From the IMG/VR virus record IMGVR_UViG_3300037067_013676, positions 1-64,000 of that record: a stretch of 64,000 bases of DNA; one strand, given 5' to 3'. The translations under genes and the position numbers were made by a program. This DNA comes from a virus (Duplodnaviria; Caudoviricetes). Under the pieces are notes generated by a model. That model searched no databases. It was not told the DNA's origin and saw only the letters and a program-made list of their open reading frames with translations. Shown here piece after piece: positions 26,328 through 48,554 of this stretch; the stretch's first letter is position 1, and every line of letters starts with the position of its first letter.

Positions 26328-27105
26328 AAATAGAAGAATAGAAAAAATTTGCCCAATCTGTTCTCATAGTTTTACATCATATATAAATAGAAATAGAATT
26401 TATTGTAATAATAAATGTTATTTTAAGTGGTTAAAATTACATCCAAATAAAGGCGCAAAGGGGCATACTTATGTTATGAAAGATGAACATAAACTTAAGA
26501 TTTCAAAAGCATTGAAAGGTAAAAAAAGAATATTTAATCATAAACCAGACTGCCCATGTTGTATATGTAAAGCTAAAAGAGGTGAAACTAAAGGAAAAAA
26601 TGCTAATAATTGGAAAGGAGATAAAGCACTAAGAAGACAAAAATACTATTGTATAGAACCTAACTGTAAAAACGAAATATCTTATGAAAATTTTAAAAAC
26701 GGTAATAAAAGATGTAAACCATGCTCTAAAAGTGGAAATAGAAATTCTTTTTTTAATAAAAAACACAGCAAAGAACAAAAAGAAAAGTGGAGTTTAAATC
26801 GTAAATTAGAGTTAAATGCTCATTGGTTAAATGGTAAATCGTTTGAAGTTTATCCTTTAGGTTGGAACAAAACATTTAAAGAACAAATTCGTTATAGAGA
26901 TGGTTATAAGTGTCAATTATGTGGTAAAAATCAATTAGAAAATGGAAGAAAACTTCACGTACATCATATTGATTATGATAAAAAGAACTTAGATGTAAAT
27001 AATTTGATAAGTTTATGCACAACTTGCCACACCAAAACCAACTTTAATAGAAAATATTGGAAAGAATATTTTAATAAATTATGGAAAAGGGAAAAGGTAA
27101 TATAA
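26320..27105 (+). CDS. HNH homing endonuclease (NUMOD3 + zinc ribbons)
   Basis: IRYRDGYKCQLCG...VHHIDYDKKN...NLISLCTTCH; GTG 26320 with GGAG SD. Confidence 0.85.
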   Translation: MSRNRRIEKICPICSHSFTSYINRNRIYCNNKCYFKWLKLHPNKGAKGHTYVMKDEHKLKISKALKGKKRIFNHKPDCPCCICKAKRGETKGKNANNWKGDKALRRQKYYCIEPNCKNEISYENFKNGNKRCKPCSKSGNRNSFFNKKHSKEQKEKWSLNRKLELNAHWLNGKSFEVYPLGWNKTFKEQIRYRDGYKCQLCGKNQLENGRKLHVHHIDYDKKNLDVNNLISLCTTCHTKTNFNRKYWKEYFNKLWKREKVI

Positions 27106-27737
27106 TTTTAGTTGGGGGTGGTAGTAGTGTTAGTGATGGTATTAAATTAGGACTGTGGGATAAAATTAAAAATACTAAGTCGGATATATGGTCAATTAAT
27201 TTTGCATTTTTAACGATTCCATATCAGATTCAAAGGGAGATTTGGGTGGATATAAGCTTCTTTAAGAACAATATAGAAGCTATTCAGAAACTATATTCAC
27301 AAGGTGTTTCTTGCCACGCTAAAAAACATCAATTTTATAGAAATATACCAGAAATCAATCTTTACGAAACTACCAGAAATCCACAAGAAATGGATAAGAA
27401 GTTATATATTGGTAGAATGGGGTTAAGTGGATTTTTTGCATTGCATTTAGCAGTTAAAGAAGAGTCAGATAATATATTTTTGCTTGGTTACGATTTCTCC
27501 GCAATAAATGGAAAAACCCATTACTATCAAGATACTCATAAAGTTCAATCTACTGGAATAGGGCATCCAGAGTTATATTTGAAAGGTGATAAACCTAAAG
27601 ACGAAGTGAAAGACTGGGAAAACTTTTGCTCTCCAGATATAAAATCTAAGATATATAATGTTAGTCCACAGAGTGCTATTGAATGTTTTTCTAAGATTAC
27701 ATATGAAGAGTTCTTTAATAAATTGGAGGAAAAATGA
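27081..27737 (+). CDS. Maf/MptE-like (sialyltransferase-fold) transferase 1
   Basis: ILVGGGSS, WSIN, LSGFFALHLA, IFLLGYD...THYY, matching the Maf/GT29/GT42-like motif layout. Confidence 0.55.
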   Translation: MEKGKGNIILVGGGSSVSDGIKLGLWDKIKNTKSDIWSINFAFLTIPYQIQREIWVDISFFKNNIEAIQKLYSQGVSCHAKKHQFYRNIPEINLYETTRNPQEMDKKLYIGRMGLSGFFALHLAVKEESDNIFLLGYDFSAINGKTHYYQDTHKVQSTGIGHPELYLKGDKPKDEVKDWENFCSPDIKSKIYNVSPQSAIECFSKITYEEFFNKLEEK

Positions 27738-27919
27738 AATTTGAAATAGATACACAAAGAACCGTAGAATATAATTATATTAGTATTTCTTTGACAAAAA
27801 ATGATATTTCTGATTTACTTAAATTTGGTGAAATTCGTCAATTTACTGAAGGTATGGAAAAATTCGTTAAAAATAATATAATAATAAAATTAGTTGAAAA
27901 TAATAAAATAAATGAATAA
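27734..27919 (+). CDS. hypothetical protein
   Basis: 61-aa ORF; GGAGG SD. Confidence 0.45.
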   Translation: MKFEIDTQRTVEYNYISISLTKNDISDLLKFGEIRQFTEGMEKFVKNNIIIKLVENNKINE

Positions 27920-28589
27920 ACCTGAAATTTCAATCCTCTTGCCATCTCTAAGACCAGAACTTCTAAAAAGAAGTATTCAAGAGTTTGCTGATACTAATTC
28001 TAATGTAGACTATCAAATTGTGGTGGTTAGTCCTTTTAAAGTTCAATCACCTAAAGTTAAATGGATATTTGAAGGAGAACCAAGAGGTAGTGTTTGGGCA
28101 ACTAATACTGCTTATACTTATTCAGAAGGTAAATATGCAGTATATTTTAGTGATGATGTAAGCCCAACCAAAGATTGCCTCAAGAATATGTTATCTTTTA
28201 TGAAAGATAAAGAAACTCCATTTATTGGTGCTTTTAAGATGCTTACACCAAATAATGCCCAGATCGGCCCCTTTGGTTGTTATGAAAAACTTTATGCCTG
28301 CTACGGATGTTTGAGTGAAGAAACTTGTGCCTTATTGGAAGGAGTATTTTATCATAAGTTTCTATATAGTTGGTGTGATATTGATTTAGCTATGAGATGT
28401 TATTCTAAAGGTGGTAAGATAGAAATTTGCCAAGATGCTTGTGTAATACCAAGACAAGTAGAGGATGAAATTTATAAAAATCATAGACAAACATTTAATC
28501 AAGATTTTAATACTTTTTGTGATTTGTGGCATCCAACGTATGGTGGTAATTTACCAAGAGAAATTGGGGCAATAAATCATAAACTATAA
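27912..28589 (+). CDS. GT-A (GT2-like) glycosyltransferase
   Basis: ISILLPSLRP, FSDDV, SWCDIDL. Confidence 0.8.
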   Translation: MNKPEISILLPSLRPELLKRSIQEFADTNSNVDYQIVVVSPFKVQSPKVKWIFEGEPRGSVWATNTAYTYSEGKYAVYFSDDVSPTKDCLKNMLSFMKDKETPFIGAFKMLTPNNAQIGPFGCYEKLYACYGCLSEETCALLEGVFYHKFLYSWCDIDLAMRCYSKGGKIEICQDACVIPRQVEDEIYKNHRQTFNQDFNTFCDLWHPTYGGNLPREIGAINHKL

Positions 28590-29306
28590 ATGCTTTTACA
28601 CATTATAATTCCAACACATTTTAGGCATCAAAAATTAATGAACTGCCTTGGTTCGATTGAGCAAGCCAGAACACTTTTAGACTGCTATTCTTATGTTTTT
28701 GTCTATTATAGTGATAAAGAAGAATTTGAGAAAGATTCAATAGGTTTAATTAATTATAAAAACATATTACCTAAACTTTTAGAAAAACCCTACTTCGCTT
28801 CTGAGTTTTGGAATGATCATATCAAATCATATAATGCAGATATATACATTTATCTTAATGATGATATTGTCTTAGAAATGAATGCGTTAAAAAGAGTAGT
28901 AAATATAATGAATGAGAAGTTTAATGATTTAGATGGGGTTGTGGCGATAACGCAAGAAAATATTCCTGAAAACCAAGCTTGCCCAACAGCTTTTGGTGCA
29001 ATAGGAACTAAATTTACAGATAGATTCCCAGATAGAAAGGTTTTCTGTGAAGATTATGAACGACTATATTTAGATAGTGAACTCGGTGAATATGCTAAAA
29101 GTCAGGGGAAATTATTTCATAGTTTAGATAAAAGCATGGCCCCCCTACTAACACACTTTCATCCTGGATTTTTCCCTAATATGAAAGATTCCACACATGA
29201 TGATGTTAGAACGCATTTAAGAAAAGATAAAATTACTAATAATAGAAGAAAATCTAAAAACCTTCTTTGGGGAAGGGATTTTACATTAATAAATGCTAAA
29301 AATTAA
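28590..29306 (+). CDS. GT-A (GT2-like) glycosyltransferase
   Basis: IIIPTHFR, LNDDIV, LYLDSELG, THFHP. Confidence 0.78.
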   Translation: MLLHIIIPTHFRHQKLMNCLGSIEQARTLLDCYSYVFVYYSDKEEFEKDSIGLINYKNILPKLLEKPYFASEFWNDHIKSYNADIYIYLNDDIVLEMNALKRVVNIMNEKFNDLDGVVAITQENIPENQACPTAFGAIGTKFTDRFPDRKVFCEDYERLYLDSELGEYAKSQGKLFHSLDKSMAPLLTHFHPGFFPNMKDSTHDDVRTHLRKDKITNNRRKSKNLLWGRDFTLINAKN

Positions 29307-30021
29307 TCTATTAGTCCCAACAAGAAGTAGACCAAAATATCTTAAAGAATTGTTTCTTAATTTAGCATATACTATTCCTTCTTTCCGTTCAAATCACATA
29401 GAATTATTTTTAAAAATAGACGAAGATGATATAGAAACAAAAAAAGCTATTTCAATTTTAGAAAGAAATGAATATCCATTTAATTGGCATTATATTTCTA
29501 ATCAAAAAAGCGATTTCTTAAATAGAGATTATTATAACAATTTAAGTAGTATTGTTGCCGAAGGACTTTTGTGGGGAATTGCCGATGATGTTAGATTTTT
29601 TACTGATGATTGGTATAAATCATTAACAAATAAGGTAGAAGAATACTTAAAAGATAAACCAGATAGAATTGCTTATATATCAGTAAATGAAGAAGGAAGC
29701 ACAGCTAAACATCCTTGTTTCCCCTTAATTACTAAAGAAGCTTTTCAAGTATTAGGCGAATATCACTGTTCAGAACTATTATCTTGGGGAAGTGATAGAA
29801 TATTATGGGAGATATATAGTGGAATTGGGCGAACCCTACATATACCAGAAATAAGTATTAAGCATTTAAGTTATCATGATGGTTCAGCACCTTTTGATGA
29901 AACAGCTAAAAGTATGAAAGAGAGATTCTTTAGAAATCCAAATGCACATAATCTTATTAGTGAAACTAAAGTTCCCCAACAAATAGAGAAATTAAAAAAA
30001 TATATTGAGGAGTTTAAATAA
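29293..30021 (+). CDS. GT-A (GT2-like) glycosyltransferase
   Basis: LLVPTRSRP, IADDVRF, FPLI, WGSDR, IKHL. Confidence 0.8.
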   Translation: MLKINLLVPTRSRPKYLKELFLNLAYTIPSFRSNHIELFLKIDEDDIETKKAISILERNEYPFNWHYISNQKSDFLNRDYYNNLSSIVAEGLLWGIADDVRFFTDDWYKSLTNKVEEYLKDKPDRIAYISVNEEGSTAKHPCFPLITKEAFQVLGEYHCSELLSWGSDRILWEIYSGIGRTLHIPEISIKHLSYHDGSAPFDETAKSMKERFFRNPNAHNLISETKVPQQIEKLKKYIEEFK

Positions 30022-31148
30022 TGTGTTTAACTAATGAATGGTCAGAAAAGAATATTTACAACAGCTTTAATTCTTTCGCTAAGGGGCTAACCTATTACGA
30101 ATATTATGAAAGTATAAACAATTGGCGATTAGGTAAAATTAAAACTCCGAGAAGTCCTGTGGAAGTTTCCCTTGATCCGATTCATGCATGTAATTTGAAA
30201 TGTTCCTGGTGCAATGCCTCTCGTTATTTAAAAGAAGGATTAGAAAATAGACGTATGAGTGATGAACATTTAATGAAGTTAATTACTTTTTTAGCTAAGT
30301 GGGGGGTTCGTGGTACATGTTGGGGAGGTGGCGGTGAAAGTTTACTCCACTCAAAAATGCAAGATGGTTTAGAGTTGGCATATTCTCTAGGTCTTGAAAA
30401 TAGCATAGCTACAAACGGAACACTTTTCAATTCTAATTTAATAAATACTGCAATTAAAACCTGTAAATGGATTGGAATGTCAATAGACGCCGCTACTAAA
30501 GAAACATACTTTGAATCTAGAAAAATAGATTTATTTGATAAAGCAATTTCTAATTTACAAGAATTATCAGAAAGAAGCAAATCTACTAACTCACAAGTAG
30601 ATATAGCATATAAATTTTTAATCTTTAAAGAAAATCAACATGAAATATATAAAGCTTGCGAATTAGCCAAAAAAATTGGAGTAAAAACATTTCACTGTCG
30701 ACCAGCTTCTTACACTCACCAAGGGATGGAATTAAAATTAGATAATCCCTACGATATGAATTTAATAGAAGAAGAATTTGAAAAATGTAGAGAACTTGAA
30801 GATAAAAGTTTTAACGTGTTTTTGATTAGACATAAATTTAATCCTGATTTTTCAGCAAAAAGAGATTTTAGTCAATGTTGGGCGGGACCATTATGTATTC
30901 AAATATGTGCAGATAATAATGTATATAATTGCCCTGATACTCGTCATTTAGAAAGTTTTAAATTAGGAGAACATTATCCAAATCCAGAAAAAATATTAGA
31001 ATTTTGGGGCAGTAAAAAACATTATAATATTGTATTTAATGAAGCTTGTAAAATATGTAACTGGAGATGCACTTTTGGATACTATGCAAAACAATTTCAA
31101 GATTTGTTCATTGATAATAACGACCCACTATTCAGGAACTTTGTATAA
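30021..31148 (+). CDS. radical SAM protein with SPASM/twitch domain
   Basis: CNLKCSWC; GGGESLLH; CWAG...VYNC...CKICNWRC. Confidence 0.9.
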   Translation: MCLTNEWSEKNIYNSFNSFAKGLTYYEYYESINNWRLGKIKTPRSPVEVSLDPIHACNLKCSWCNASRYLKEGLENRRMSDEHLMKLITFLAKWGVRGTCWGGGGESLLHSKMQDGLELAYSLGLENSIATNGTLFNSNLINTAIKTCKWIGMSIDAATKETYFESRKIDLFDKAISNLQELSERSKSTNSQVDIAYKFLIFKENQHEIYKACELAKKIGVKTFHCRPASYTHQGMELKLDNPYDMNLIEEEFEKCRELEDKSFNVFLIRHKFNPDFSAKRDFSQCWAGPLCIQICADNNVYNCPDTRHLESFKLGEHYPNPEKILEFWGSKKHYNIVFNEACKICNWRCTFGYYAKQFQDLFIDNNDPLFRNFV

Positions 31149-31175
31149 AAATATGGAACAAGAAAGAAGAATTTA

Positions 31176-31799
31176 ATGGAAAAATCAACTAATAAAGTTG
31201 GCAAATATAAAAGAACAGAAAAACATCTTGAAAATTTAAGAAAATATGCTTTTAAAAAAGGTATGATTCCTTGGAATAAAGGTTTAACTACAAAAACAGA
31301 TGAAAGAGTTAAAAAATATGGGGAGAAATCTGGCAATACTAGAAAAGGTAAATTGGTTGGAATTTTTAGTCCTAATCATGGTAGAAAACACACAGAAGAA
31401 GAAATAATAAAAATGAAAAACGCAGCAATTAAAGATGGAAGAAAACCACCATCCAGAAAAGACTGTGAAAATATTATTTTTAATTTTAAAAATTTACCAA
31501 ATAAACCAGAAAAAGTACTTATTAATTTATTAAATACTATTTTACCAAACGAATATAAATACATTGGAAACTGTAAATTATGGATTGAAGATTTTAATCC
31601 AGATTTTATAAACTGCAATGGGCAAAAGAAAATTATAGAATTATTTGGTGATTACTGGCATAGAAATACTCAAGAAAGAGACAAAAATCGTTTAGAAACA
31701 TATGCTAAATATGGATACAATACCTTAGTTATATGGGAACATGAGTTAAAAGATTTACATAATGTGAGAAATAAAATATTAGAATGGAGTAAATTATAA
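31176..31799 (+). CDS. NUMOD3 + Vsr/DUF559-like homing endonuclease
   Basis: PWNKGL, HTEEE; PDFI...IELFGDYWH...VIWEHE. Confidence 0.8.
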   Translation: MEKSTNKVGKYKRTEKHLENLRKYAFKKGMIPWNKGLTTKTDERVKKYGEKSGNTRKGKLVGIFSPNHGRKHTEEEIIKMKNAAIKDGRKPPSRKDCENIIFNFKNLPNKPEKVLINLLNTILPNEYKYIGNCKLWIEDFNPDFINCNGQKKIIELFGDYWHRNTQERDKNRLETYAKYGYNTLVIWEHELKDLHNVRNKILEWSKL

Positions 31800-32176
31800 T
31801 GGAAAGAGACCCTGGCGATATTTTGGATCGAGGTTCTATTGCTAAACTAAAGCATGAAAGAATTAGAAATCCTGAAAATGATAAAGAATGGATTGCTTTT
31901 GAAAAAGAGTTAAAAATACTTATTAAAAAATATCCTAATCTTTTTATAAATGATTTGTTTGAACTATTATATAGTATTAATTCATTTATTTGGGAAAAAG
32001 AATCGGATATGAGACAAGGTAAATTAGATGGAATTCTTTACGAAGTTGGTATTAGAGCTATAGAAATTCGTAAACTTAATAATTTTAGAATATCAATAAA
32101 AAATCTTATAAATAAGTTAACTGAAAGTGGATTTATTGACATAAAACATAATCATCTTAGTGAAGGAACTAAATAA
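31799..32176 (+). CDS. DUF6165-like helical protein
   Basis: PGDILDRGSIAKLK...INSFIWEKE..R...N..R..IKNLIN pattern. Confidence 0.5.
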   Translation: MERDPGDILDRGSIAKLKHERIRNPENDKEWIAFEKELKILIKKYPNLFINDLFELLYSINSFIWEKESDMRQGKLDGILYEVGIRAIEIRKLNNFRISIKNLINKLTESGFIDIKHNHLSEGTK

Positions 32177-38357: not shown

Positions 38358-38358
38358 A

Positions 38359-40026: not shown

Positions 40027-41372
40027 TGAAAATCTTATTATGTGTTTTAAGTAATTCTAATTTTATACACTACATACCTCTCGGCGTAGCTTATATCGCT
40101 AGTGTTTTAAGAAATAATAGTCACGAAGTTATTATTTATTCTCAAGATATTCATCACTATCCAGAAGAACATCTAACCAAATATCTTGATAAAAACAAAT
40201 TTGATGTAGTTGGCATTGGGGCAATTTCTGGGTATTTCCCTTATAGAAAATTATTGAAAGCATCAGAATCTATAAATAAGAGTATAAATAGACCTTTTTT
40301 TATTTTAGGTGGTCATATGCCTTCTGCTGACCCACAATACTTTTTAAGAAAAACTGGTGCAAACTGTGTAATACGTGGAGAAGCAGAATTATCTTTTGTT
40401 GAAATATTAAATATGATTAGTAGAAAAGAAGAAGTACCTAAAGTAGTGGAAGGAAAATTAGTTAACGATTTAGACTACTTACCATTTCCAGCGTATGATA
40501 TGTTTCTAATGGAGTATTATAGATTACAAAGGTATCCCCACATAGAAAATAATGAGTTTTCAATGTCAATGTTAAGTGGTAGGGGATGCTGGGGAAGATG
40601 CGTTTTTTGCCAAAGATTAACACCAAATATCAGATTAAGAGGAGTTAATAGTATAGTAGAAGAAATTAAACTACTTAAAAAGAATTATAGTATCTCTTAT
40701 ATAGATTTTGCTGATGACTTAACTTTTGCATCAAAACAAAGAACTGCCGAATTATGTGAATCATTTATTAAGAATAATTTGAATATAAAATGGAGATGTG
40801 AGGGTAGATTAAATTTTATAGATTCAGATATACTTAAATTAATTAGAAAAGCTGGATGTGTTTTTATTAATTATGGTATAGAATCTTTAGATGATGAAGT
40901 ATTAAAAAATATGAAGAAAGATTTAACAGTTTCTCAAATAATAAATGGTGTAGAAGCTACTTTAAAAGAAGGTATTAGCCCAGGACTTAATGTTATTTTC
41001 GGCAACATTGGAGATAATAAAGAAACTCTTAAAAAAGCAGTGGATTTCTTATTAAAATATGATGATGGAGCACAAGTAAGAACAATACATCCTGTCATTC
41101 CGTTTCCTGGCACGGAACTATTCGAAACTGCCAAAGAAAAAGGTTTATTAAAAGATACTGAAGATTTTTATGAACACAAGCACACAAACAGCGATTTGTT
41201 GACAGTTAATTTTACAGAATTAACAGATGAAGAATTTTATAAAGAATTATATAAAGCTAACTTTCAACTTCTATGTAATTATAATAAAAATAGATTATAT
41301 GATTATGAAAAACAATTAAAAGAAATATATTTAGAAAAAAACACTAACTTTCGGGGGTTCGGGCATAAATGA
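40026..41372 (+). CDS. B12-binding radical SAM enzyme (class B methyltransferase-like)
   Basis: PLGVAYIAS, GGHMPS, RGEAE, RGCWGRCVFC, ADDLTF, YGIES. Confidence 0.92.
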   Translation: MKILLCVLSNSNFIHYIPLGVAYIASVLRNNSHEVIIYSQDIHHYPEEHLTKYLDKNKFDVVGIGAISGYFPYRKLLKASESINKSINRPFFILGGHMPSADPQYFLRKTGANCVIRGEAELSFVEILNMISRKEEVPKVVEGKLVNDLDYLPFPAYDMFLMEYYRLQRYPHIENNEFSMSMLSGRGCWGRCVFCQRLTPNIRLRGVNSIVEEIKLLKKNYSISYIDFADDLTFASKQRTAELCESFIKNNLNIKWRCEGRLNFIDSDILKLIRKAGCVFINYGIESLDDEVLKNMKKDLTVSQIINGVEATLKEGISPGLNVIFGNIGDNKETLKKAVDFLLKYDDGAQVRTIHPVIPFPGTELFETAKEKGLLKDTEDFYEHKHTNSDLLTVNFTELTDEEFYKELYKANFQLLCNYNKNRLYDYEKQLKEIYLEKNTNFRGFGHK

Positions 41373-42223
41373 ACTGTTCAAATTGTGGTGAAAGTCTGCA
41401 TAAATCAAAAGTAATAGCTAAACAAAATGATATTAGATTTAATTGCTACAATACTAAAAAAAGAATAGTTCAATGTTCTAAATGCGAATTAGTTCAACTT
41501 ATTCCACAGTGGTCAGATAAAGAGTTAGATAAAATTTACACTACATATAATCAAAAACCTGATTTTATAGGGCAAAAAAATATATCTAAAAGAATAAGTA
41601 AATGGATTAAAAAATACTTAGTAAAGGTGGGGCAAAATTTGGAAGTTGGATGTGGCAATGGTGATACTGTAAAATATTTTAAAACTAAAATGTATAATAT
41701 AATGGGCATAGATAAAGATAAATCTGTAGAAAAATGTTATGAGGGAATATATAATTATGATATTTACGATAAAAAATTTGATAAAGACTTGTATCATGCT
41801 AAATTTTATTTTATCTATGGATTACATATATTAGAACATATGAAAAACCCGATAAAATTTATTGAAAGATTAAAAGAATTGTTATTCTCCGAAGGAACTA
41901 TACTATTAGAATTTCCAAATTTGGAAGATCCATTACTAACCATATATAAATCAAAAGAGTTTGAAAAGTTTTATTATAGACCAGACCATCATTTCTTCTA
42001 CACACCAAAAACAATAATGGATTTATTGTATAGAAATAAAGTAGTTAACTGTCAAATAAAAAGAACTCAAACTTATAGTATAGTAAACCATTTAAATTGG
42101 TTAATTAGAAAAAAACCAACCAATCTTAAAATAAATTTACCTATAATTGATTTTCTATATAAGTGGTGTTTAGTTCATATATTTAAAAAATCTGATACAA
42201 TACTCTTAATAATTAAAAAATGA
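41369..42223 (+). CDS. class I SAM-dependent methyltransferase with N-terminal zinc ribbon
   Basis: CSNC, CSKC; LEVGCGNG; HILEH; EFPN. Confidence 0.85.
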   Translation: MNCSNCGESLHKSKVIAKQNDIRFNCYNTKKRIVQCSKCELVQLIPQWSDKELDKIYTTYNQKPDFIGQKNISKRISKWIKKYLVKVGQNLEVGCGNGDTVKYFKTKMYNIMGIDKDKSVEKCYEGIYNYDIYDKKFDKDLYHAKFYFIYGLHILEHMKNPIKFIERLKELLFSEGTILLEFPNLEDPLLTIYKSKEFEKFYYRPDHHFFYTPKTIMDLLYRNKVVNCQIKRTQTYSIVNHLNWLIRKKPTNLKINLPIIDFLYKWCLVHIFKKSDTILLIIKK

Positions 42224-43002
42224 GAAAAAAATATAAATGTATAGAAAAAGATTGTAAAAATGAAGTTTCTGGCAAAAATAGAAGATGCAGACATCACGCA
42301 CTAATATTGAGACATAAGTTAACAAATTTTGCTTTAAAACATGGCAGATATTCCAAAAATTTTAAACCAATTTACTATTGTATAGATGGATGTGGAGCAA
42401 AAGTAAGTGAAGAAGGAAATAGATGTTATTCTTGTTCTAAACTTGGTAACAAAAATCCTCAATTTATAGATGGCAGAACAAATAAAGTATATTATTGTTT
42501 AGTAAAAGGATGTAATACTATTGTAAAATCATATGGGAAAAAATGTAGGCATCATGCTCAATCAGGGAGAAAAGTTTCAGATAAAACTAAGAAAAAACAA
42601 AGTATATCTATGAAAAAAGCTGGTTTTACTCATAATAAAGAAATTTGTTCTTGTTTTATTTGCAAAGCTTATAGAGGTGAAACTAAAGGTGAAAACGCAA
42701 GCAATTGGATGGATGGAAGAAGTTTTGAAGACTATCCAAAAGAATTTAATGCAGAACTTAGAGATAAAATAAGAAAACGTGATGATTATATTTGTCAAAA
42801 TTGTGGTATGACAGAAGAAGAACATATAATAGTTTTGGGTTATAATTTGACTATTCATCATATAGATTATAATAAAAATAATAATAAAGAAAGTAATTTA
42901 ATTACTACCTGTAGTAGTTGTAATTGTAGAGCCAATTATAATAGAAATTATTGGAAAGAATATTATCAAAAGAAAATGGAGAAAAAATGCATACAACAAT
43001 AA
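42220..43002 (+). CDS. HNH homing endonuclease with Cys/His repeats
   Basis: IRKRDDYICQNCG...IHHIDYNKNN...NLITTCSSCN. Confidence 0.85.
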   Translation: MRKKYKCIEKDCKNEVSGKNRRCRHHALILRHKLTNFALKHGRYSKNFKPIYYCIDGCGAKVSEEGNRCYSCSKLGNKNPQFIDGRTNKVYYCLVKGCNTIVKSYGKKCRHHAQSGRKVSDKTKKKQSISMKKAGFTHNKEICSCFICKAYRGETKGENASNWMDGRSFEDYPKEFNAELRDKIRKRDDYICQNCGMTEEEHIIVLGYNLTIHHIDYNKNNNKESNLITTCSSCNCRANYNRNYWKEYYQKKMEKKCIQQ

Positions 43003-43826
43003 TTGCAGAAGCAGGTATAAATCATCTTGGGAGTATAGATTTATGCATGCAGTTAATTGATGGAGCTGTTTTTGGTGGAGCAGATATTTTTAAATTACAA
43101 AAAAGAGATATTAATTCTACTTATACTAAAGAAGAGTTGAATAAATATAGAGAATCTCCCTTTGGATTGTTGAATCGTGATTTAAAAAAACAATTAGAAT
43201 TTAATGAAAAAGAATATGATATTATTAAAAAATACTGCGATTCTAAAAATATTGAATTAATGGTTTCGGCTTGGGACTTGGCAAGTCAAAATTTTCTCAA
43301 AAAATATAATTGCAAGTATAACAAAGTAGCTTCTGCTAGATTAGGTCATAAAAAACTATTGGAAGAAATAGCCAAAGAAGGTAAATATACGTTCATTTCT
43401 ACTGGTATGGCAACGATTGACGAAATTGGGGAAGCTATAAAAATATTTAATAATTTCGGATGCCCATTTGAGTTAATGGCTTGTAATAGTAGCTATCCTT
43501 GCCCAGATGAAGATTTGAATTTATTAACTATTAAAACTTTAAGAGATACTTTTGGGTGTAAAGTTGGGTTCAGTAGTCATTCGCCTGGGATTATTCCTTG
43601 TGTATTAGCTGTGGCTTTAGGTGCTACTTCTATAGAAGCCCATCTGACGACGAATAGAACTCTTTATGGTAGTGACCAAGCTTCTTCAATTGAAATTCAC
43701 GGATTTAAAAGAATGGTTGATTATGTAAGGGATGCTGAACTGCAATTGGGCGATGGTATTAAAGTAATAACTGAAACAGAGAAAAAGATAAGAGAAAAAC
43801 TCTACAGGACTGAAGATATACAATGA
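42987..43826 (+). CDS. neuB: nonulosonate synthase (NeuB family) lacking the C-terminal antifreeze-like domain
   Basis: IAEAGINH, KLQKR, KVASA, ISTGM, SSYP, GFSSH, IEAH..D. Confidence 0.9.
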   Translation: MHTTIIAEAGINHLGSIDLCMQLIDGAVFGGADIFKLQKRDINSTYTKEELNKYRESPFGLLNRDLKKQLEFNEKEYDIIKKYCDSKNIELMVSAWDLASQNFLKKYNCKYNKVASARLGHKKLLEEIAKEGKYTFISTGMATIDEIGEAIKIFNNFGCPFELMACNSSYPCPDEDLNLLTIKTLRDTFGCKVGFSSHSPGIIPCVLAVALGATSIEAHLTTNRTLYGSDQASSIEIHGFKRMVDYVRDAELQLGDGIKVITETEKKIREKLYRTEDIQ

Positions 43827-44491
43827 ATGATAAAATAGTGATTTGTGGAGCCAGGGGTGGTAGTTCGAGGGTTCTCAACAAAAATATTAGAAAATTAGGA
43901 GAAATTCCTCTTATTGAGTATTCTCTATTTACTGGTGAATTATTAGGATTACCTATTTATGTTTCTTCCGATTCCGATAAAATACTCAAAATTGTAAAAA
44001 CTCATGGATCTTTAGTAAACATTATTAAAAGACCTAGTATATTAGCTTCAAATACATCAACTGATATAGATTGGATAAAACATTTATTAAGTATTTATTA
44101 TGAGCAAAATAGTTCTTATCCTAAACAATTAATATTTTTAAGACCAACTACCCCACTTAGGGAAATTTCTATAGTTAAAGAAGCAATTAAAAAATTTAAC
44201 GGTTCAAAATATACTTCATTAAGAAGTGTAGAAGAACTAAAAGAAAGTATCTATAAAACATATTTTATAAAAAACTGTATTCTTGAACCATTTAACAAAG
44301 ATAATAGTAATGTGGCGAACCAAACCTTGCCAATTTCCTATGGTGCAAACGGATATATAGATATACTACTTACAGAGCAAATATTAAACTCAAATGATAT
44401 ATATGGTGATAAAATAATGCCATTTATAACTCCAAGAACAATAGAAATAGATGATGAATTTGATTTTAAACTTGCGGAGAAATTAATATGA
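43823..44491 (+). CDS. neuA: acylneuraminate cytidylyltransferase (NeuA family)
   Basis: ARGGSSRVLNKNIR, VSSDS, RPSILA, LRPTTPLR, ANGYID, EIDDEFDF. Confidence 0.92.
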   Translation: MNDKIVICGARGGSSRVLNKNIRKLGEIPLIEYSLFTGELLGLPIYVSSDSDKILKIVKTHGSLVNIIKRPSILASNTSTDIDWIKHLLSIYYEQNSSYPKQLIFLRPTTPLREISIVKEAIKKFNGSKYTSLRSVEELKESIYKTYFIKNCILEPFNKDNSNVANQTLPISYGANGYIDILLTEQILNSNDIYGDKIMPFITPRTIEIDDEFDFKLAEKLI

Positions 44492-45723
44492 AATATGCTA
44501 AAGTAGTAACTAAACTACCTCACAAAGCAGATTTAAAGCTTCTCAGCGATATTAACAAGTATGAAGCTAATAGTATGCAAGGACAAATACCTCTTATCTG
44601 GGATAGTGCTAAAGGGTTTTTAGTAAAAGATAGACACGGTAATCAATTTTTGGATTTTACATCTGGAATAGCTGTTGCAAACTGTGGTCATGGTAATAAT
44701 GATATAATGAATGCTATAAGAAGCAAAATAAATAGACCTTTAGTACATTCTTATACATTTGGAACTGAAATACGATATAAATTCTTAAAAGAATTAGTAG
44801 ATATATATTACCCAAAAGGAAAAGCATTTTTAGTAAGTGCCGGAACTGAAGCTACTGAAGTTGCTGTAAAATTAATGCGTAGATATGGTATATCTCATAA
44901 AAAAGAAATGATAGGAATAGTGTCTTTTAAAGGAGCAATGCATGGAAGAACATCTATATCTGAAAATTTAAAGGGAGATAGTTTTCAGACTTCAAAAGAT
45001 GGGTGGGCTAATAGAGATAATTCCATACTAAACATTAATCCTCCTTTTGATAGTGAAAAATTTAACTATAAACATATTCCCGATATTAAAAATATTTGTG
45101 GGATTATTATAGAAAGTTATCAAGGTTGGTCTGCTAGATTTTATAATAAGAAATATATGCAGGATTTAGTAAAATATTGTAAAGAAAATAATATTTTAGT
45201 TTGTTTTGATGAAATACAGGGAGGATTTGGAAGAACTGGTAAAATGTGGGCTTGGGAACATTACAATATACCACAACCAGATTTAATATGTTTTGGTAAA
45301 GGTGTTAGTTCAAGTGTTCCTTTATCTGGAGTGTTAGGTAGAAAAGATATACTAGATATACTAGAAGTAGGCGGCATGTCATCTACCCATTCAGCAAATC
45401 CTATTAGTTGTGCCGCTGGATTGTCTAATTTACAATATCTTAAAAAATACAATTTAATAAAAAATTCAAGAATACTTGGTAAAAAAATGATAGATTTTCT
45501 TAGAGGTTTGGGTTTAGAAATCAATGGTAATGGGTTGTTGTGTGCAATTATTACTAAAACTGACGAAGAAGCTGATAGAATAGTTATAGAATGCTTTAAG
45601 AAAGGTTTATTACTAATAAGAACACATAAGAACTCAATTAAGCTCGCACCACCGTTAATTTTAACAGAGGATGCTCTCTTTGAAGGACTAAATATCATAA
45701 AAGAGGTTATTAAATCACAATGA
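44488..45723 (+). CDS. class III PLP aminotransferase
   Basis: DFTSGIAV..GH, AGTEA, MHGRT, FDEIQGGFGRTG, PDLICFGKG. Confidence 0.92.
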   Translation: MKYAKVVTKLPHKADLKLLSDINKYEANSMQGQIPLIWDSAKGFLVKDRHGNQFLDFTSGIAVANCGHGNNDIMNAIRSKINRPLVHSYTFGTEIRYKFLKELVDIYYPKGKAFLVSAGTEATEVAVKLMRRYGISHKKEMIGIVSFKGAMHGRTSISENLKGDSFQTSKDGWANRDNSILNINPPFDSEKFNYKHIPDIKNICGIIIESYQGWSARFYNKKYMQDLVKYCKENNILVCFDEIQGGFGRTGKMWAWEHYNIPQPDLICFGKGVSSSVPLSGVLGRKDILDILEVGGMSSTHSANPISCAAGLSNLQYLKKYNLIKNSRILGKKMIDFLRGLGLEINGNGLLCAIITKTDEEADRIVIECFKKGLLLIRTHKNSIKLAPPLILTEDALFEGLNIIKEVIKSQ

Positions 45724-46124
45724 GTATATGTAATATTAGACACGTGTGTTTGTGTGTGAGTAATCTACAAAAAGCCGACTACTTTTATAGAAAAGTATTA
45801 GGTTTACATTATGTAAATAGTGAAGTAGAAGAAGGGGATTTCATTAAATCTCTTTTAGGATTAGATTCTCTAACTTGGGTCAAACTGGCTACTGATAGTG
45901 GAGATATATTAGAATTATATTGGTTGCCCACAAAAACCAATGATTCTTTTAATCATATAGCGTTTACTGTAGAAAATGTGCAATATATGAGAAATAAACT
46001 AAAAGAGTTTGAAATTGAGTGTTCCGAAATTAAATTAGACAAAAGTGGAACTCATAAAGTAATGTTTTGTAGAGACCCCGAAAAAAATATGTTAGAAATT
46101 GTTGAGGAGATTAAAAATGTATAA
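45720..46124 (+). CDS. VOC/glyoxalase-family protein
   Basis: RHVCLCV..L..A..FY..LG; LEL; HIAFTV; RDPE...LEIVE. Confidence 0.85.
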   Translation: MSICNIRHVCLCVSNLQKADYFYRKVLGLHYVNSEVEEGDFIKSLLGLDSLTWVKLATDSGDILELYWLPTKTNDSFNHIAFTVENVQYMRNKLKEFEIECSEIKLDKSGTHKVMFCRDPEKNMLEIVEEIKNV

Positions 46125-46920
46125 TTTAGCGGGTTTAAGTGTAGCATCGGTTGAACTTTCGAGTTTTTGTAATAAGGTTCCAGGGTGCTTCATGTGTGGG
46201 AGACGCAAGCTTGAAAAAGAACATCCAGAACTTTGCCAATGGGGAAATATGGATATTGGATTAGTAGATTTAATTGCAAAACAACTACCTTCAAATATTA
46301 TAGTGAGTCTCCATGGAAATGGGGATCCTTTGTGCTATCCTAGGCTAAAAGAAGCACTACATAGATTTAAGCGTCAAATAAGAGTATTTAATACAAATGC
46401 AGTGGCTTTATTAGAAAAAGCAGATATTATAATAAATAACCTTGAATCTTTAACTATTTCAGTAATAGAAAACGATACTTTAGGAGATAAACAGTATGAA
46501 GATGTTAAAAAGTTTTTAGAAATAAAAGGTAACAAAAAACCAATTATGACTTATAGATTACTTGGAAATGTAGAAAATGCCAAAAGATGGTATGAATTAC
46601 CAGGCAAAGTAGCTACAAGAATACTACACAATCCACTGGGCAGTTTTGACTACACTAAAAAAGTAACGTTGCCTGAACACCAAATTTGTATGGACATGTT
46701 AACCCATTGTTTTATAGATAGATACGGCGATTTTTACCCTTGTATTCGGTACAATCCTTATAAAATAAACAAACTCGGTAATATTAAAGAAAATACTTTA
46801 GAAGAGTTGTGGAATAGCCCCAAAAGACTAAATCTACTTAAAGAACATGTAAAAGGAAACCGCAATTGTAGTAAACTTTGTAGTAAATGTGATTTTTATG
46901 GGATCCCACGTGGAGATTAA
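46117..46920 (+). CDS. radical SAM protein with SPASM/twitch domain
   Basis: CNKVPGCFMC (variant spacing), HGNGDPL, C...G..YPC, CSKC; SD GAGGAG. Confidence 0.85.
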   Translation: MYNLAGLSVASVELSSFCNKVPGCFMCGRRKLEKEHPELCQWGNMDIGLVDLIAKQLPSNIIVSLHGNGDPLCYPRLKEALHRFKRQIRVFNTNAVALLEKADIIINNLESLTISVIENDTLGDKQYEDVKKFLEIKGNKKPIMTYRLLGNVENAKRWYELPGKVATRILHNPLGSFDYTKKVTLPEHQICMDMLTHCFIDRYGDFYPCIRYNPYKINKLGNIKENTLEELWNSPKRLNLLKEHVKGNRNCSKLCSKCDFYGIPRGD

Positions 46921-47089: not shown

Positions 47090-47176
47090 TATAAAAAGAG
47101 TAGATTTACCCACTCTACTTAAAATAATCAAACACAGGGTATCACAAACGCAAATTTACCCTATTTGTGAGACTAC

Positions 47177-47938
47177 ATGGGAGACAATATGAGTAATAAT
47201 TGTAAATTTTCACTTTCAGCTTCAGCTATACGACCTCAAATTTGGCAACAGTTGTTAGATTCTTTAAGAAGTAATGATTTGAAATATGAAGTAGTTTTGG
47301 CTGGAAATGTTAGACCACAATTTGATATATCTAAATATCCAGAATTAAAATACATATATTCACCAACAAAGCCGAGTCAGTGTTATCAGATATGTTTTAA
47401 TGAAAGTGTTGGTGAGTTAGTATCTTGGGGAAGTGATGACTCCACCTACCCACCTAACGCTTTAGATGAAATGTATGAGTTTTTTAAGTCTTTTAACAAT
47501 AGAAAATTGGTGGCGGCGTTTAGAACTGTTGAGGATGGTAGAGATATTACTGAATGGCATAGATTGAGGGGGCGAGATCCAAATGCTCCAAGAATGGCTC
47601 CCTTTGGAGTAATGGATAGGGAGTTTTTTAATGAACTGGGTGGATACGATCGTAGATTTATTTGTGGGCAATCTGAAAATGATGTAGTAATGAGAGTGTA
47701 TGAAGCTGGCGGGGAACTACAAATATCTAAAGTTCCAGTAATAGTAAATCATCAAAAAGCTCATGATAGCAGTGGAACTGTGTTTAGAAGTGGATATTTC
47801 CATGAAGATCGTAGGGTATTAGAATCGGCATGGTTTAATCCAGATAAAACTATTTCTAATAAACGATTAGTTCCTTTTGAATCTTTTGATAAAACTGATA
47901 TTTTAACAAAAACTCAATCGCAACGTGGGAAGTGGTAA
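47177..47938 (+). CDS. GT-A (GT2-like) glycosyltransferase, paralog of 38359
   Basis: ASAIRPQ, YIYSPTKPSQC, GSDDS, LGGYDRRF, ENDV. Confidence 0.82.
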   Translation: MGDNMSNNCKFSLSASAIRPQIWQQLLDSLRSNDLKYEVVLAGNVRPQFDISKYPELKYIYSPTKPSQCYQICFNESVGELVSWGSDDSTYPPNALDEMYEFFKSFNNRKLVAAFRTVEDGRDITEWHRLRGRDPNAPRMAPFGVMDREFFNELGGYDRRFICGQSENDVVMRVYEAGGELQISKVPVIVNHQKAHDSSGTVFRSGYFHEDRRVLESAWFNPDKTISNKRLVPFESFDKTDILTKTQSQRGKW

Positions 47939-47939
47939 A

Positions 47940-48554
47940 ATGAAACCTTGGATTGTCAGTTGTTTTTATACCGCCCAAACGCCCTACAGAGACATTTTAT
48001 ATTCACAGTTAATCCCAAGTCTTGATAAATTAAATATTAAATATAACATAGAAGAAATAGAAAATAAAGGTTCGTGGTTAAAAAATGTTGCCCAAAAACC
48101 TCTAACTATACTTCATACTTTAGAAAAGTATCCAGAATATAATTGCGTGTCAATTGATTCTGATGCGGAAGTGTTAAGTTATCCTAAAATATTTGATGAA
48201 ATTGGAGAAGAATTTGATATAGGTTTACATGAGTTAGACTGGGATAGTTGGTATCAAAATAACTCGCATGTTAAAGAAATATTGAGTGGTACTGGTTGGT
48301 TTAACAATACTCAAAAAGTAAAAGATTTAGTTAAAGAGTGGTATGATAGAGCCATAAAAGACTATAAATGGGAGCAAAAGGTGCTTTCGGGTCTGATTTT
48401 AGAAAAAAAAGATATTAAAATATTTGAATTGCCAATTGAATATGTATGGTTAGAATCACTTCCAGATGGTTCTCCACCAAAAATAAAAGGAACTCCAATC
48501 ATTCTTCACAAACAAGCATCTCGCCAAATGAAACGTAAAATTAGATTATTATAA
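47940..48554 (+). CDS. nucleotide-diphospho-sugar transferase (GT-A fold)
   Basis: FYT..Y, W..N...KP, IDSDA (DxD), SGT..F, WEQ..L, LHKQAS. Confidence 0.75.
   Translation: MKPWIVSCFYTAQTPYRDILYSQLIPSLDKLNIKYNIEEIENKGSWLKNVAQKPLTILHTLEKYPEYNCVSIDSDAEVLSYPKIFDEIGEEFDIGLHELDWDSWYQNNSHVKEILSGTGWFNNTQKVKDLVKEWYDRAIKDYKWEQKVLSGLILEKKDIKIFELPIEYVWLESLPDGSPPKIKGTPIILHKQASRQMKRKIRLL

Follow-up and report, generated by a model that had tools for sequence, protein, structure and literature searches.

A run of 25 ORFs in a tailed phage, all on the plus strand between positions 27081 and 48554, may encode a cytoplasmic pathway that makes, tailors and activates a nonulosonate and builds an oligosaccharide on a probable virion acceptor; we give this explanation as a whole a probability of about one half. 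The window analysed comprises 64,000 nucleotides (IMG/VR record IMGVR_UViG_3300037067_013676, positions 1 to 64,000). The nonulosonate-glycan reading of the island is well supported: the predicted NeuB, NeuA and cognate-type transferases are found together, and it is by this triad that a nonulosonate system is defined. No membrane segment was found in any protein of the run, and these soluble enzymes take up approximately one fifth of the phage genome.

Gene content of the island

The island comprises eight GT-A glycosyltransferases, two sialyltransferase-fold proteins, a NeuB lacking the SAF domain, a CMP-sugar synthetase, a class III aminotransferase, a VOC protein, a methyltransferase, five radical SAM enzymes (30021, 32176, 35656, 40026 and 46099, named by start position; B12 domain in two), a truncated TPP E1 alpha/beta pair, a DUF6165 protein and two homing endonucleases (Table 1). 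A previous sequence-only reading had described a co-directional run of glycan genes, and HMM and structure searches bore this out almost gene for gene: the eight GT-A enzymes, two Maf/sialyltransferase-like proteins, NeuB, NeuA, E1 pair, aminotransferase, VOC protein and methyltransferase were all recovered. Its radical SAM assignments needed revision. Among three proposed B12-binding enzymes, 35656 and 40026 carry the domain, whereas 32176 matches class B in the core only and no B12-binding domain was detected in it; the two proposed SPASM-type enzymes are both real, 46099 being however a compact BtrN-like enzyme. None of the island enzymes passed an NCBIfam equivalog cut-off, which counts against the proposed explanation.

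Table 1. Genes of the island with the matches on which each assignment is based.
Predicted product	Coordinates	Strand	Size, match or model
Sialyltransferase/MptE(Maf)-like transferase 1	27081..27737	+	218 aa
GT-A (GT2) glycosyltransferase	27912..28589	+	PF00535, E 1.7e-6, above cut-off
GT-A glycosyltransferase	28590..29306	+	Atlas search
GT-A glycosyltransferase, family B paralog	29293..30021	+	26% identical to 37587
Radical SAM enzyme, C-terminal Cys-rich (SPASM-like) region	30021..31148	+	PF04055, 57.9 bits
DUF559 (Vsr-like) homing endonuclease, selfish insert	31176..31799	+	PF04480, E 2.3e-6
DUF6165 protein	31799..32176	+	PF19662, E 4.3e-5, below cut-off
Class-B-related radical SAM enzyme with intein	32176..34434	+	PF04055, 64.7 bits
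GT-A glycosyltransferase, family B paralog	34434..35108	+	36% identical to 37587 over 121 aa
Truncated TPP E1 alpha, PP domain only	35102..35680	+	192 aa; PF00676, 66 bits
B12-binding radical SAM enzyme b	35656..37089	+	PF02310, 49 bits; PF04055, 54 bits
Truncated TPP E1 beta, pyrimidine-binding domain only	37070..37600	+	176 aa
GT-A glycosyltransferase, family B	37587..38357	+	AF2 model, pLDDT 96.3
GT-A (GT2-like) glycosyltransferase	38359..39168	+	PF10111, E 3.9e-4, weak
Sialyltransferase-fold (GT42/Maf-like) transferase 2	39162..39896	+	AF2 model, pLDDT 92.5
B12-binding radical SAM enzyme c	40026..41372	+	PF02310, 60 bits; PF04055, 69 bits
SAM-dependent methyltransferase	41369..42223	+	PF13489, E 4.5e-13
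HNH homing endonuclease, selfish insert	42220..43002	+	PF01844
NeuB-family nonulosonate synthase without SAF domain	42951..43826	+	291 aa; PF03102, 214 bits
CMP-nonulosonate synthetase (NeuA/PseF/LegF family)	43823..44491	+	PF02348, 39.7 bits, above cut-off
Class III (omega-type) PLP aminotransferase	44488..45723	+	PF00202, 247.5 bits
VOC (glyoxalase/FosB-fold) protein	45720..46124	+	PF00903, E 1.2e-11
Compact BtrN-like radical SAM enzyme, one auxiliary-cluster domain	46099..46920	+	PF13186 SPASM, E 1e-11
GT-A (GT2-like) glycosyltransferase	47177..47938	+	PF00535, E 0.0048, weak
GT-A-like nucleotide-diphospho-sugar transferase	47925..48554	+	PF03407 (Nucleotid_trans), E 0.0046, below cut-off

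The NeuB protein matched TIGR03569 with 227 bits, below the cut-off, over profile positions 2-274 of 329, and its top PDB match was 6ncs, a short NeuB of 290 aa. NeuA matched the PseF profile TIGR03584 over its full length (79.7 bits, below cut-off). The first sialyltransferase-fold protein (27081) matched phrog_4603 ‘alpha-2,3-sialyltransferase’ with an E of 1.3e-12 and, by structure, the MptE-like/WaaZ_KDO_III clusters of the Atlas (TM 0.74-0.78); its homolog in G001, a complete related phage of 109 kb, is 61% identical. The model of the second (39162) matched CstII with a Foldseek probability of 1.0, and VIA Z scores were 13.4 for Cst-I, 13.0 for CstII and 11.7 for Maf 5mu5. Its 43 relatives include none with a Pfam domain on record and several on contigs shared with relatives of the B12 enzyme 40026; no homolog was found among 301 Omnitrophota genomes.

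Several of the GT-A enzymes are paralogs: 47177 (65% identical in G001) is 36% identical to 38359 and distantly related to 27912. Gene 28590 had an Atlas feature score of 0.99 and a structure TM of 0.82 to virus-dominated GT2 clusters. Family B (29293, 34434 and 37587) matched PF00535 in 33 of 52 members and, searched with 37587, had 588 relatives in the representative library; the 37587 model matched TarP/TarS/RmlT (Foldseek E 4e-10, probability 1.0), and homologs of 34434 are 74% and 89% identical in G001 and in the phage contig L098, respectively. The final gene of the island, 47925, keeps this place in G001 and in a further contig, L103.

Among the tailoring enzymes, 30021 has the CX3CX2C motif at residue 57 and 16 Cys, its top NCBIfam matches being SPASM-type maturases, all far below cut-off. 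The top matches of 32176 were HpnJ and PhpK. This gene is interrupted by a LAGLIDADG intein of 336 aa (nt 32578-33585; intein and LAGLIDADG profile matches), which the contiguous G001 homolog lacks; the enzyme needs intein splicing for activity, a point against the proposed explanation. In 35656 the CX3CX2C motif lies at residue 186, and the homologs in G001 and L098 are 82-91% identical. The family profile of 46099 matched BtrN (4m7t) with an E of 3e-15 and has invariant Cys at positions 24, 30, 33, 197, 215, 261 and 264. The copy in the window reads CX5CX2C, in contrast to CX3CX2C in all relatives, and this two-residue insertion into the cluster motif likewise counts against the explanation. 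For aminotransferase 44488, all NCBIfam equivalogs were below cut-off, and the PDB matches of the VOC protein were glyoxalase I and FosB. The E1 alpha protein covers PF00676 positions 6-178 of 300, corresponds to residues 51-209 of PDH E1 alpha by PDB match and belongs to a family of 358 clusters of approximately 190-210 aa. E1 beta reached 26.5 bits against PF02779 (Transket_pyr; cut-off 27) and an E of 5e-5 against NF006667 PDH E1 beta; it adjoins E1 alpha also in G001, L098 and L103.

Three island members were additional to those listed earlier. DUF6165 (31799) is highly conserved, with 79% identity in G001. Endonuclease 31176 has no homolog at the corresponding place in G001, and endonuclease 42220 is present in L098 and absent at the corresponding place in G001 and L103.

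Bacterial and archaeal relatives of the core module

Relatives of the B12 enzyme 40026 are encoded in 338 stretches of GTDB genomes, those of 462 aa being 52-57% identical to it. Of 80 bacterial loci, 52 have NeuB/NeuA homologs beside the family member, and its neighbours in the GTDB loci are LegB, LegC, LegH, LegI, LegG, PtmE, PtmA and LegF; members of the LegB-LegC-LegH-LegI-LegG-PtmE-PtmA sets pass NCBIfam cut-offs. As a new observation, 40026 belongs to an unstudied family that many anaerobic bacteria and archaea carry within canonical loci for legionaminic acid. The module of NeuB, NeuA, aminotransferase, VOC protein, BtrN-like enzyme, methyltransferase and B12 enzyme was also found in Omnitrophota, Planctomycetota and other genomes, and a homolog of methyltransferase 41369 adjoins the B12 enzyme in three bacterial loci (L053, L057 and L095). 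The core module of the phage is a bacterial module as well, which is also new. The host is probably an anaerobic prokaryote.

Proposed pathway and its acceptor

By homology, the SAF-less NeuB condenses PEP with an aldose to a nine-carbon 2-keto-3-deoxy acid. The aldose may be supplied by the host or derive from central sugar phosphates; its source is unexplained, as no Leg, Pse or NeuC-type precursor genes were found in the phage, and this counts against the explanation. The earlier observation that core nucleotide-sugar enzymes are missing was confirmed: DegT, NeuC-type epimerase, SDR dehydratase/epimerase and sugar-1-P nucleotidyltransferase were not found in the record or in complete G001, nor was PEP mutase found in the phage. 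The accompanying proposal that the phage takes host precursors remains a deduction from this absence. In a second step, the sugar or its precursor might be tailored without oxygen or NAD. The BtrN-like dehydrogenase would oxidise a hydroxyl to a carbonyl, which the class III aminotransferase would then convert to an amine; the VOC protein may act as an epimerase beside the carbonyl, the methyltransferase and B12 radical SAM enzymes could add methyls or rearrange carbon, and the truncated E1 pair may donate a two-carbon unit from a 2-oxo acid. NeuA, again by homology, then forms the CMP-sugar. Finally, the two sialyltransferase-fold enzymes, whose folds like those of the GT-A enzymes were established, would transfer the CMP-sugar and the eight GT-A enzymes would add host NDP-sugars, with donors and order of action presumed, so that a hetero-oligosaccharide would grow on an acceptor that is either soluble or peripheral to the membrane. 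Since all island proteins are soluble and the usual precursor enzymes are missing, assembly is cytoplasmic, as had been anticipated.

The most likely candidate acceptors are virion proteins of the phage itself, namely the fibre-like proteins encoded by the genes that converge on the island from the minus strand; in that case new particles would be coated with glycan. That the island ends against a tail operon found weak support in one PHROG ‘virion structural protein’ match at 50257-52287, all other searches of the minus-strand neighbours being empty; the island end overlaps the end of this structural block by 14 nt, which speaks for a virion acceptor. The suggestion of Ser/Thr-rich tail proteins as acceptor gained no support: at 17-27%, the neighbouring proteins contain no more Ser/Thr than is usual for fibre-like proteins, and they showed no glycosylation motif. 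Against a virion acceptor counts also that no evidence ties the transferases to virion proteins.

The host envelope is about as likely an acceptor because the nearest structural relatives of the transferases, CstII/Cst-I, WaaZ-like Kdo transferase (for 27081) and TarP/TarS/RmlT (for family B), point there: CstII/Cst-I, WaaZ-like and TarP/TarS enzymes work from the cytoplasmic side on LOS, LPS or teichoic acid, CstII and Cst-I being sialyltransferases for LOS and TarP, TarS and RmlT glycosyltransferases for wall teichoic acid. As a complete alternative, which we regard as possible but doubtful, the glycan would be placed on LOS/LPS core, teichoic acid, capsule precursor, flagellin or pilin and exported by the host. 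Receptors would thereby be masked, with superinfection exclusion and progeny spared from binding to debris as the result, or the surface of the infected cell would be altered in another way. Soluble proteins without an exporter would suit enzymes feeding host export, and the island runs in the direction of the early/middle replication genes rather than that of the structural genes. However, an apparently lytic phage would be devoting a very large stretch, 21 kb, to receptor masking; neither a priming polyprenyl-phosphate transferase nor a membrane-anchoring segment was found; and what the fold matches show is general GT-A/GT42 architecture rather than acceptor specificity.

That the product is instead a small glycosylated molecule, free or secreted and resembling for instance an aminoglycoside or an orthosomycin oligosaccharide, is improbable. 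The BtrN-like dehydrogenase, class III aminotransferase, B12 radical SAM methylases and E1 pair do resemble antibiotic sugar pathways, but NeuB, the CMP-sugar synthetase and the two sialyltransferase-fold enzymes indicate a nonulosonate glycoconjugate, ten transferases are many, the run holds no cyclitol synthase, resistance or exporter gene, and the bacterial relatives of the module lie in legionaminic-acid surface-glycan loci. Still less probable is a glycan on the phage bases that blocks restriction. We know of no nonulosonate on DNA; a ThyA-like dCMP/dUMP hydroxymethylase was not found in the record or in complete G001, the dCMP deaminase and ThyX indicate ordinary dTMP synthesis, and two DNA methylases encoded by the phage suggest conventional protection. 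In its favour, genes of nucleotide metabolism (dCMP deaminase, ThyX and RNR) adjoin the island, and virus glycosyltransferases are reported by Pyle et al. 2024 (listed in PMC12619734) to put diverse glycans on DNA.

Conservation in related phages

The entire island lies at the corresponding place in G001 with 55-82% identity, and L098 and L103 share its gene order. G001 has direct terminal repeats and was also seen as a fourfold head-to-tail concatemer with units of 109,258 nt. The dN/dS of 11 genes was 0.09-0.21, and in the B12-enzyme tree the four phages form one clade (aLRT 100). From these comparisons the island appears vertically inherited in phages, its genes real and conserved. A misassembly joining a bacterial surface-polysaccharide locus to phage DNA, named beforehand among the outcomes that would refute the reading, is already refuted by this synteny, although bacteria have close homologs of the core enzymes (at most 57% identity); the GC content of 26-33% also fits the remaining phage genome, the intein and phage-type homing endonucleases lie inside the island and the phage copies cluster apart.

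Comparison with known systems

The claim that no such phage pathway has been described held in literature and GenBank-phage searches, in which no match was found. The island shares with legionaminic-acid loci and flagellin islands (Campylobacter LegB/C/H/G/I/F, Ptm, Maf) a NeuB-family synthase, a CMP-sugar synthetase, Maf/GT42-fold transferases and cytoplasmic glycosylation without a lipid carrier, and such loci in anaerobes contain relatives of 40026. Unlike them, it is carried by a phage, lacks LegB, LegC, LegH, LegG and PtmE, has a synthase without SAF and an aminotransferase of class III instead of DegT type, and adds the BtrN-like enzyme, VOC protein, TPP pair and eight GT-A enzymes.

Mycobacteriophage cassettes reportedly comprise few genes and use host NDP-sugars. 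In contrast, the present island has 25 ORFs, would make and activate its own acidic sugar and includes radical chemistry. Common to both are phage-encoded soluble glycosyltransferases and a methyltransferase, which in mycobacteriophages, where virion glycosylation is known, act in the cytoplasm on both capsid and tail proteins (Freeman et al. 2023, Cell Host Microbe, as cited in PMC12619734).

Giant-virus clusters (Mimivirus and relatives) also combine virus-own sugar synthesis and transferases independent of host glycosylation, and ChoanoV1 carries DUF115 and GT29 proteins with a sialyltransferase-type fold; these are however eukaryotic viruses with different sugars, and to our knowledge their clusters have no radical SAM, B12 or TPP chemistry. 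The predicted 46099 step resembles that of butirosin BtrN, also a compact radical SAM enzyme (approximately 270 aa, one auxiliary-cluster domain), whose dehydrogenation is followed by transamination. In the phage, the VOC gene separates 46099 from the PLP aminotransferase gene, the second one upstream; the partner is of class III and not DegT type, and instead of an aminocyclitol the expected substrate would be a sugar acid or a precursor of one. In branched-sugar antibiotic pathways, AviB1/AviB2-type PDH-E1-like pairs, alpha/beta TPP subunits without E2/E3 among sugar-tailoring genes, are proposed to put a two-carbon branch on a keto sugar. The phage pair has the same setting, likewise without E2/E3, but its subunits are truncated to the PP and pyrimidine-binding domains and represent a separate family of short proteins.

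Conservation of the island in a phage lineage

The record that begins with the window (its first 64 kb) is an 88.5-kb linear IMG/VR virus record, ~81% complete, and the phage DNA has a GC content of 26-36%. The island, about one fifth of the phage genome, continues the replication and nucleotide block without a change of strand, and minus-strand genes converge on it, the first of them overlapping the last island gene by 14 nt. Promoter and terminator scans of the island and its border gave counts not above shuffled expectation. A complete relative with direct terminal repeats (G001) is collinear with the window phage over the replication genes, the island and the structural genes, and every island enzyme in it is 55-82% identical. 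It occurs in metagenome contig JGI24729J20445_1000001 (L099-L102; 419,765 nt) as four head-to-tail copies; this fourfold contig is a concatemer or circular-permutation artefact, and the 109,258-nt spacing of the copies fixes the unit genome length. Gene order is also kept in two further related contigs, L098 (83-91% identity, GC 29%) and L103 (41-59% identity, GC 38%). For eleven genes compared with L098, dN/dS is 0.09-0.21, and in a quick maximum-likelihood tree of the family of the B12 radical SAM enzyme 40026 (genes are named by their start coordinates) the four phages form one clade with an aLRT of 100. From the collinearity with G001, the gene order of L098 and L103, the dN/dS values and the phage clade we conclude that the island is old cargo of the phage lineage and under selection. 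A chimera of phage sequence and a host locus, which had been named beforehand as one of the outcomes that would count against the island, is rejected by the synteny with all three relatives.

Features of the window and their coordinates (nt; positions marked "genome" lie in the remainder of the record)
Feature	Position	Strand	Assignment
Replication and nucleotide genes	1 to 48.5 kb	+	primase-helicase, RecA-like, family B DNA polymerase, class II ribonucleotide reductase, dCMP deaminase, exonuclease, ThyX
Two adjacent N6/N4 DNA methylase ORFs	3677-5007		in the first ORF, the Pfam match covers the profile's C-terminal part only
HNH homing endonuclease family	6489-7187, 15121-15858, 26305-27105, 42220-43002, 49599-50255, 58552-59265; genome 70478-71170, 78922-79617		
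DNA polymerase	16602-19694		
Insert in DNA polymerase	18228-19184		~319 aa
Ribonucleotide reductase	20364-22280		cobalamin-dependent class II, from PHROG and phage annotations of nearest relatives
Glycan island	27081-48554	+	25 co-directional ORFs
Radical SAM gene 32176	32176-34434	+	split by intein
Intein of 32176	32578-33585	+	LAGLIDADG, 336 aa; Cys135 to Asn470, Ser471 at +1
E1 alpha, B12 radical SAM, E1 beta	35102-37600	+	
Cluster motif of 46099	46165-46200	+	CX5CX2C
Minus-strand genes	from 48541	-	putative structural or fibre-like proteins
Structural protein	50257-52287	-	PHROG 'virion structural protein'
Proteins with Thr/Tyr-rich segment	52670-53254, 53242-55086, 55097-55684	-	

Glycosyltransferases and nonulosonate enzymes

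Island genes were checked against Pfam, NCBIfam and PHROGs, by two AlphaFold models and by two Atlas look-ups. All eight GT-A transferases listed in the sequence-only reading were confirmed (27912, 28590, 29293, 34434, 37587, 38359, 47177 and 47925); 38359 and 47177 are paralogs, and 29293, 34434 and 37587 form one paralog family, with PF00535 matched by 33 of its 52 relatives and a model (pLDDT 96.3) that resembles TarP, TarS and RmlT at a Foldseek probability of 1.0. The two Maf/sialyltransferase-like proteins noticed earlier, 39162 and 27081, were likewise recovered by fold or PHROG. The model of 39162 (pLDDT 92.5) aligns with Cst-I at a VIA Z of 13.4 (rmsd 4.0, 210 aligned), with CstII at 13.0 and with the Magnetospirillum Maf 5mu5 at 11.7, while 27081 matches phrog_4603 ('alpha-2,3-sialyltransferase', E 1.3e-12) and, by structure, MptE-like and WaaZ clusters. 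The MptE-like profile PF01973 matches 39162 weakly (E 0.062) and 27081 not at all, and a sequence profile of the sialyltransferase family retrieved nothing from the PDB, where only the fold search gave matches. MptE-like proteins with a sialyltransferase fold are common in uncultured phages and also occur in a choanoflagellate giant virus; searches for the phage family in 301 Omnitrophota genomes and in five bacterial genomes with the enzyme module described below gave no match. At the level of fold, the island is shown to hold two transferases of the CMP-ulosonate-using type besides the eight GT-A enzymes. Membrane segments were found in none of the island proteins.

NeuB, NeuA, the class III aminotransferase (44488), the VOC protein (45720), the methyltransferase (41369) and the E1 alpha/beta pair (35102/37070) were all found again. 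NeuB (42951) matches PF03102 over the full profile (1-241, 214 bits) and the NeuB and PseI structures of the PDB at E values of 1e-33 to 1e-36. The protein, 291 aa long, has no C-terminal SAF domain, its TIGR03569 match stopping at profile position 274 of 329; short NeuB forms do exist, of 290 aa in PDB 6ncs and 280-296 aa in bacterial copies of the module. The CMP-sugar synthetase 43823 (NeuA) scores 39.7 bits with PF02348 (cut-off 22.6), and its full-length match to the PseF equivalog, at 79.7 bits, is under the cut-off of 205.7. The homology shows a pair predicted to form a 2-keto-3-deoxy nine-carbon acid (NeuB) and to activate it with CMP (NeuA). The claimed lack of core nucleotide-sugar enzymes held for the whole record and for the complete relative, neither of which has a match to PF01041, PF02350, PF01370 or PF00483. 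With these families, no DegT, NeuC-type, SDR or sugar-1-phosphate nucleotidyltransferase gene, and none of the upstream NDP-hexose enzymes of the LegB/C/H/G, PseB/C/H/G or NeuC type, was found in either genome; without such genes, host or central metabolism would have to supply the aldose and the NDP-sugars.

Radical SAM enzymes and the truncated TPP pair

A cluster motif is present in all five radical SAM proteins. Three had been taken for B12-binding enzymes: 32176, 35656 and 40026 carry CX3CX2C at residues 490, 186 and 188, respectively, and exceed the PF04055 cut-off, and the B12-binding domain PF02310 is found in 35656 (49 bits) and 40026 (60 bits). The assignment stands for these two; in 32176 and its intein-free homolog in G001, PF02310 was not detected, and alignment of 32176 with the 40026 family by hhalign is limited to the core, to which its class B likeness is confined. 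The other two had been called SPASM-type, and for 46099 the family profile match favours a description as BtrN-like. A profile built from seven members of its family matches BtrN (4m7t) in two stretches, at E 3e-15; every other solved structure, NifB and anSME included, scores far weaker. Four C-terminal cysteines are invariant in the family, which by sequence would be enough for one auxiliary cluster. The cluster motif of 46099 has a two-residue insertion against CX3CX2C in seven of seven phage and bacterial relatives; the cluster may still be bound or the enzyme may be impaired.

The PP domain of E1 alpha (PF00676, 66 bits) aligns with residues 51-209 of human PDH E1 alpha. Against full-length E1 heteromers (alpha ~330-400 aa, beta ending in a transketolase domain) the phage subunits fall short, with only 192 and 176 aa and with beta matching Transket_pyr alone (26.5 bits, cut-off 27). 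Neither E2 nor E3 was found among the ORFs scanned with Pfam and PHROGs, about two-thirds of those listed. E1 alpha belongs to a family of ~190-210-aa subunits (358 clusters), some of them in Omnitrophota and Desulfosudaceae. In the window the B12 radical SAM gene stands between alpha and beta, a gene order that only this phage has: in G001 and L098 the radical SAM gene follows the alpha-beta pair, and in L103 a GT2 gene separates alpha from beta and no radical SAM gene lies at this place. Furthermore, the E1 genes are 67 and 56% identical to those of L098, far under the 85-91% of the flanking genes. This order and this drop in identity suggest that the E1 region arose by a cassette exchange.

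Bacterial counterparts

Relatives of 40026 are numerous, with 3613 database matches and 338 stretches of GTDB genomes that encode one, in Omnitrophota, Nitrospirota, Thermodesulfobacteriota, Planctomycetota, Bacillota, Chloroflexota and archaea. Those listed are mostly 462 aa long, and members from bacteria and archaea share 52-57% identity with 40026; one culturable carrier is Geomonas sp. Red32 (locus L082). NeuB and NeuA homologs lie in 52 of the 80 loci examined, and the clustered neighbours are the canonical legionaminic-acid set: LegB (512.9 bits, cut-off 475), LegC (512, cut-off 420), a NeuD-type acetyltransferase, NeuB/LegI, a NeuC-type epimerase, a PtmE-like nucleotidyltransferase, a PtmA-like SDR and a Gfo-type oxidoreductase, often together with the amidotransferase genes WbuX and WbuZ. 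A literature search found no paper linking cobalamin radical SAM enzymes with nonulosonic acids.

The core of the phage island itself, comprising a short NeuB, NeuA, the class III aminotransferase, the VOC protein, the BtrN-like enzyme, the methyltransferase and the B12 enzyme, recurs in a minority of bacterial loci (L053 and L089 of Omnitrophota, L095 of Planctomycetales, L055 and L057) and on a jumbo-phage viral contig (G002; 187 kb, GC 29%). On the latter, at positions 1-27000 (L003), the core is part of a co-directional glycan run that is larger still and also holds DegT aminotransferases and SDR enzymes (two of each), a SIS-domain isomerase, another radical SAM enzyme, GT2 proteins and methyltransferases.

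Quite apart from the phage, these loci bring to light two unstudied enzyme sets of nonulosonate biology: a B12 radical SAM enzyme that is highly conserved and lies within legionaminic-acid loci across many phyla, and a compact module in which a BtrN-like enzyme is joined by a class III aminotransferase, a VOC protein and a short NeuB. The two sets, being small and soluble, lend themselves to anaerobic expression in a heterologous host, and thus their chemistry is directly testable.

Proposed pathway

Our joint reading, to which we give roughly one chance in four, is that the phage lineage coats its virions with an undescribed nonulosonate of its own making, produced anaerobically and without recourse to the nucleotide-sugar pathways of the Leg, Pse and Neu types. 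The SAF-less synthase would act on a sugar of central metabolism. The BtrN-like radical dehydrogenase would turn a hydroxyl into a carbonyl and the omega-type aminotransferase the carbonyl into an amine, so that an amino group would be installed without O2 or NAD, in place of the dehydratase and DegT steps that are lacking. The VOC protein may act as an epimerase next to this carbonyl, and the methyltransferase and B12 enzymes may methylate or rearrange the product; carbon would be added by the B12 enzymes and by the minimal TPP pair, the latter possibly as a two-carbon unit. Donors of the GT-A enzymes would presumably be host NDP-sugars. If this pathway is true, the 462-aa B12 family would represent an uncharacterised step, widespread among anaerobic bacteria and archaea, in the tailoring of their legionaminic-acid glycans. 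A phosphonate route, for which a split decarboxylase, an aminotransferase, a P-methylase-like radical SAM enzyme and a cytidylyltransferase might be read, is excluded by the absence of PEP mutase from the record and from G001, and the TPP pair is of the E1 type, not of the phosphonopyruvate decarboxylase type.

The reductase of the replication block, whose nearest relatives are from a spring virus and a Maribacter phage (46-48% identity), would, like the B12 radical SAM enzymes, suit a host replete in cobalamin. Together, three cobalamin or cobalamin-like enzymes, the class II reductase and the anaerobic distribution of the bacterial homologs suggest that the host may be anaerobic and cobalamin-replete; tRNA genes, looked for as a further host clue, were not found.

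Among 50,697 GenBank phage records, 40026 has one weak relative (23.7% identical) on an unannotated 6.8-kb faecal contig, and NeuB homologs occur in three uncharacterised records. The phage DNA itself matched no GenBank phage. The earlier statement that no phage pathway with as much radical chemistry is known agrees with searches of the literature, which turned up neuB as a viral auxiliary gene but no analysis of such a pathway. The island falls within virus-encoded glycosylation, with an undescribed chemistry. To our knowledge, comparable glycan decoration is known only from few-gene versions in mycobacteriophages and from giant eukaryotic viruses.

Possible acceptors of the glycan

Virion proteins are our tentative first choice as acceptor, since the island adjoins the structural block, since an apparently lytic phage invests so much in it and since there is a precedent in the virion glycosylation of mycobacteriophages (Freeman et al. 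2023, cited in PMC12619734). The structural proteins contain 8-27% Ser+Thr and have no obvious C-terminal Ser/Thr tail, and capsid and tail-tube genes were not identified among them; the neighbouring proteins, proposed earlier as a Ser/Thr-rich tail acceptor, are ordinary in Ser/Thr content. In cassettes of the mycobacteriophage type, glycans sit on Ser/Thr-rich C-terminal tails of capsid or tail-tube subunits. Remodelling of the host envelope is instead rather suggested by the structural relatives of the transferases, which include CstII, WaaZ-like proteins and TarP. A glycan on the phage DNA is unlikely, since no hydroxymethylase was found and the normal dTMP route is present. If the proposed pathway is right, tailed phages of anaerobes would be able to make sialic-acid-like sugars of their own and to decorate a target with complex glycans; whether as a coat or through a remodelled host surface, these would bear on adsorption, superinfection, grazing and immune recognition.

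Searches of the structural proteins against GenBank phages, PHROGs and the PDB gave no match apart from the one tabulated. Three consecutive minus-strand proteins have in common a Thr/Tyr-rich segment, '...YYTKD..TG..T..T.G...', and match no known family; 52670 is 32% identical to part of 53242, and the three are probably paralogous fibre modules.

Selfish elements and other features of the genome

The adjacent methylase ORFs may represent a duplicated or split methylase. Besides a DUF6165 protein, the island contains two homing endonucleases, and its 5' border is overlapped by a third endonuclease. The HNH genes are scattered over the replication, glycan and structural modules, and several match the same few G001 loci. 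The intein of 32176, ~20 residues ahead of CX3CX2C, is missing from the G001 homolog, and a 34% identical intein-like stretch lies in the primase-helicase region of G001. The genome is unusually rich in selfish elements. The polymerase insert, which the G001 polymerase lacks, also has intein ends, with Cys543 as its first residue and His-Asn, followed by Cys862, as its last.
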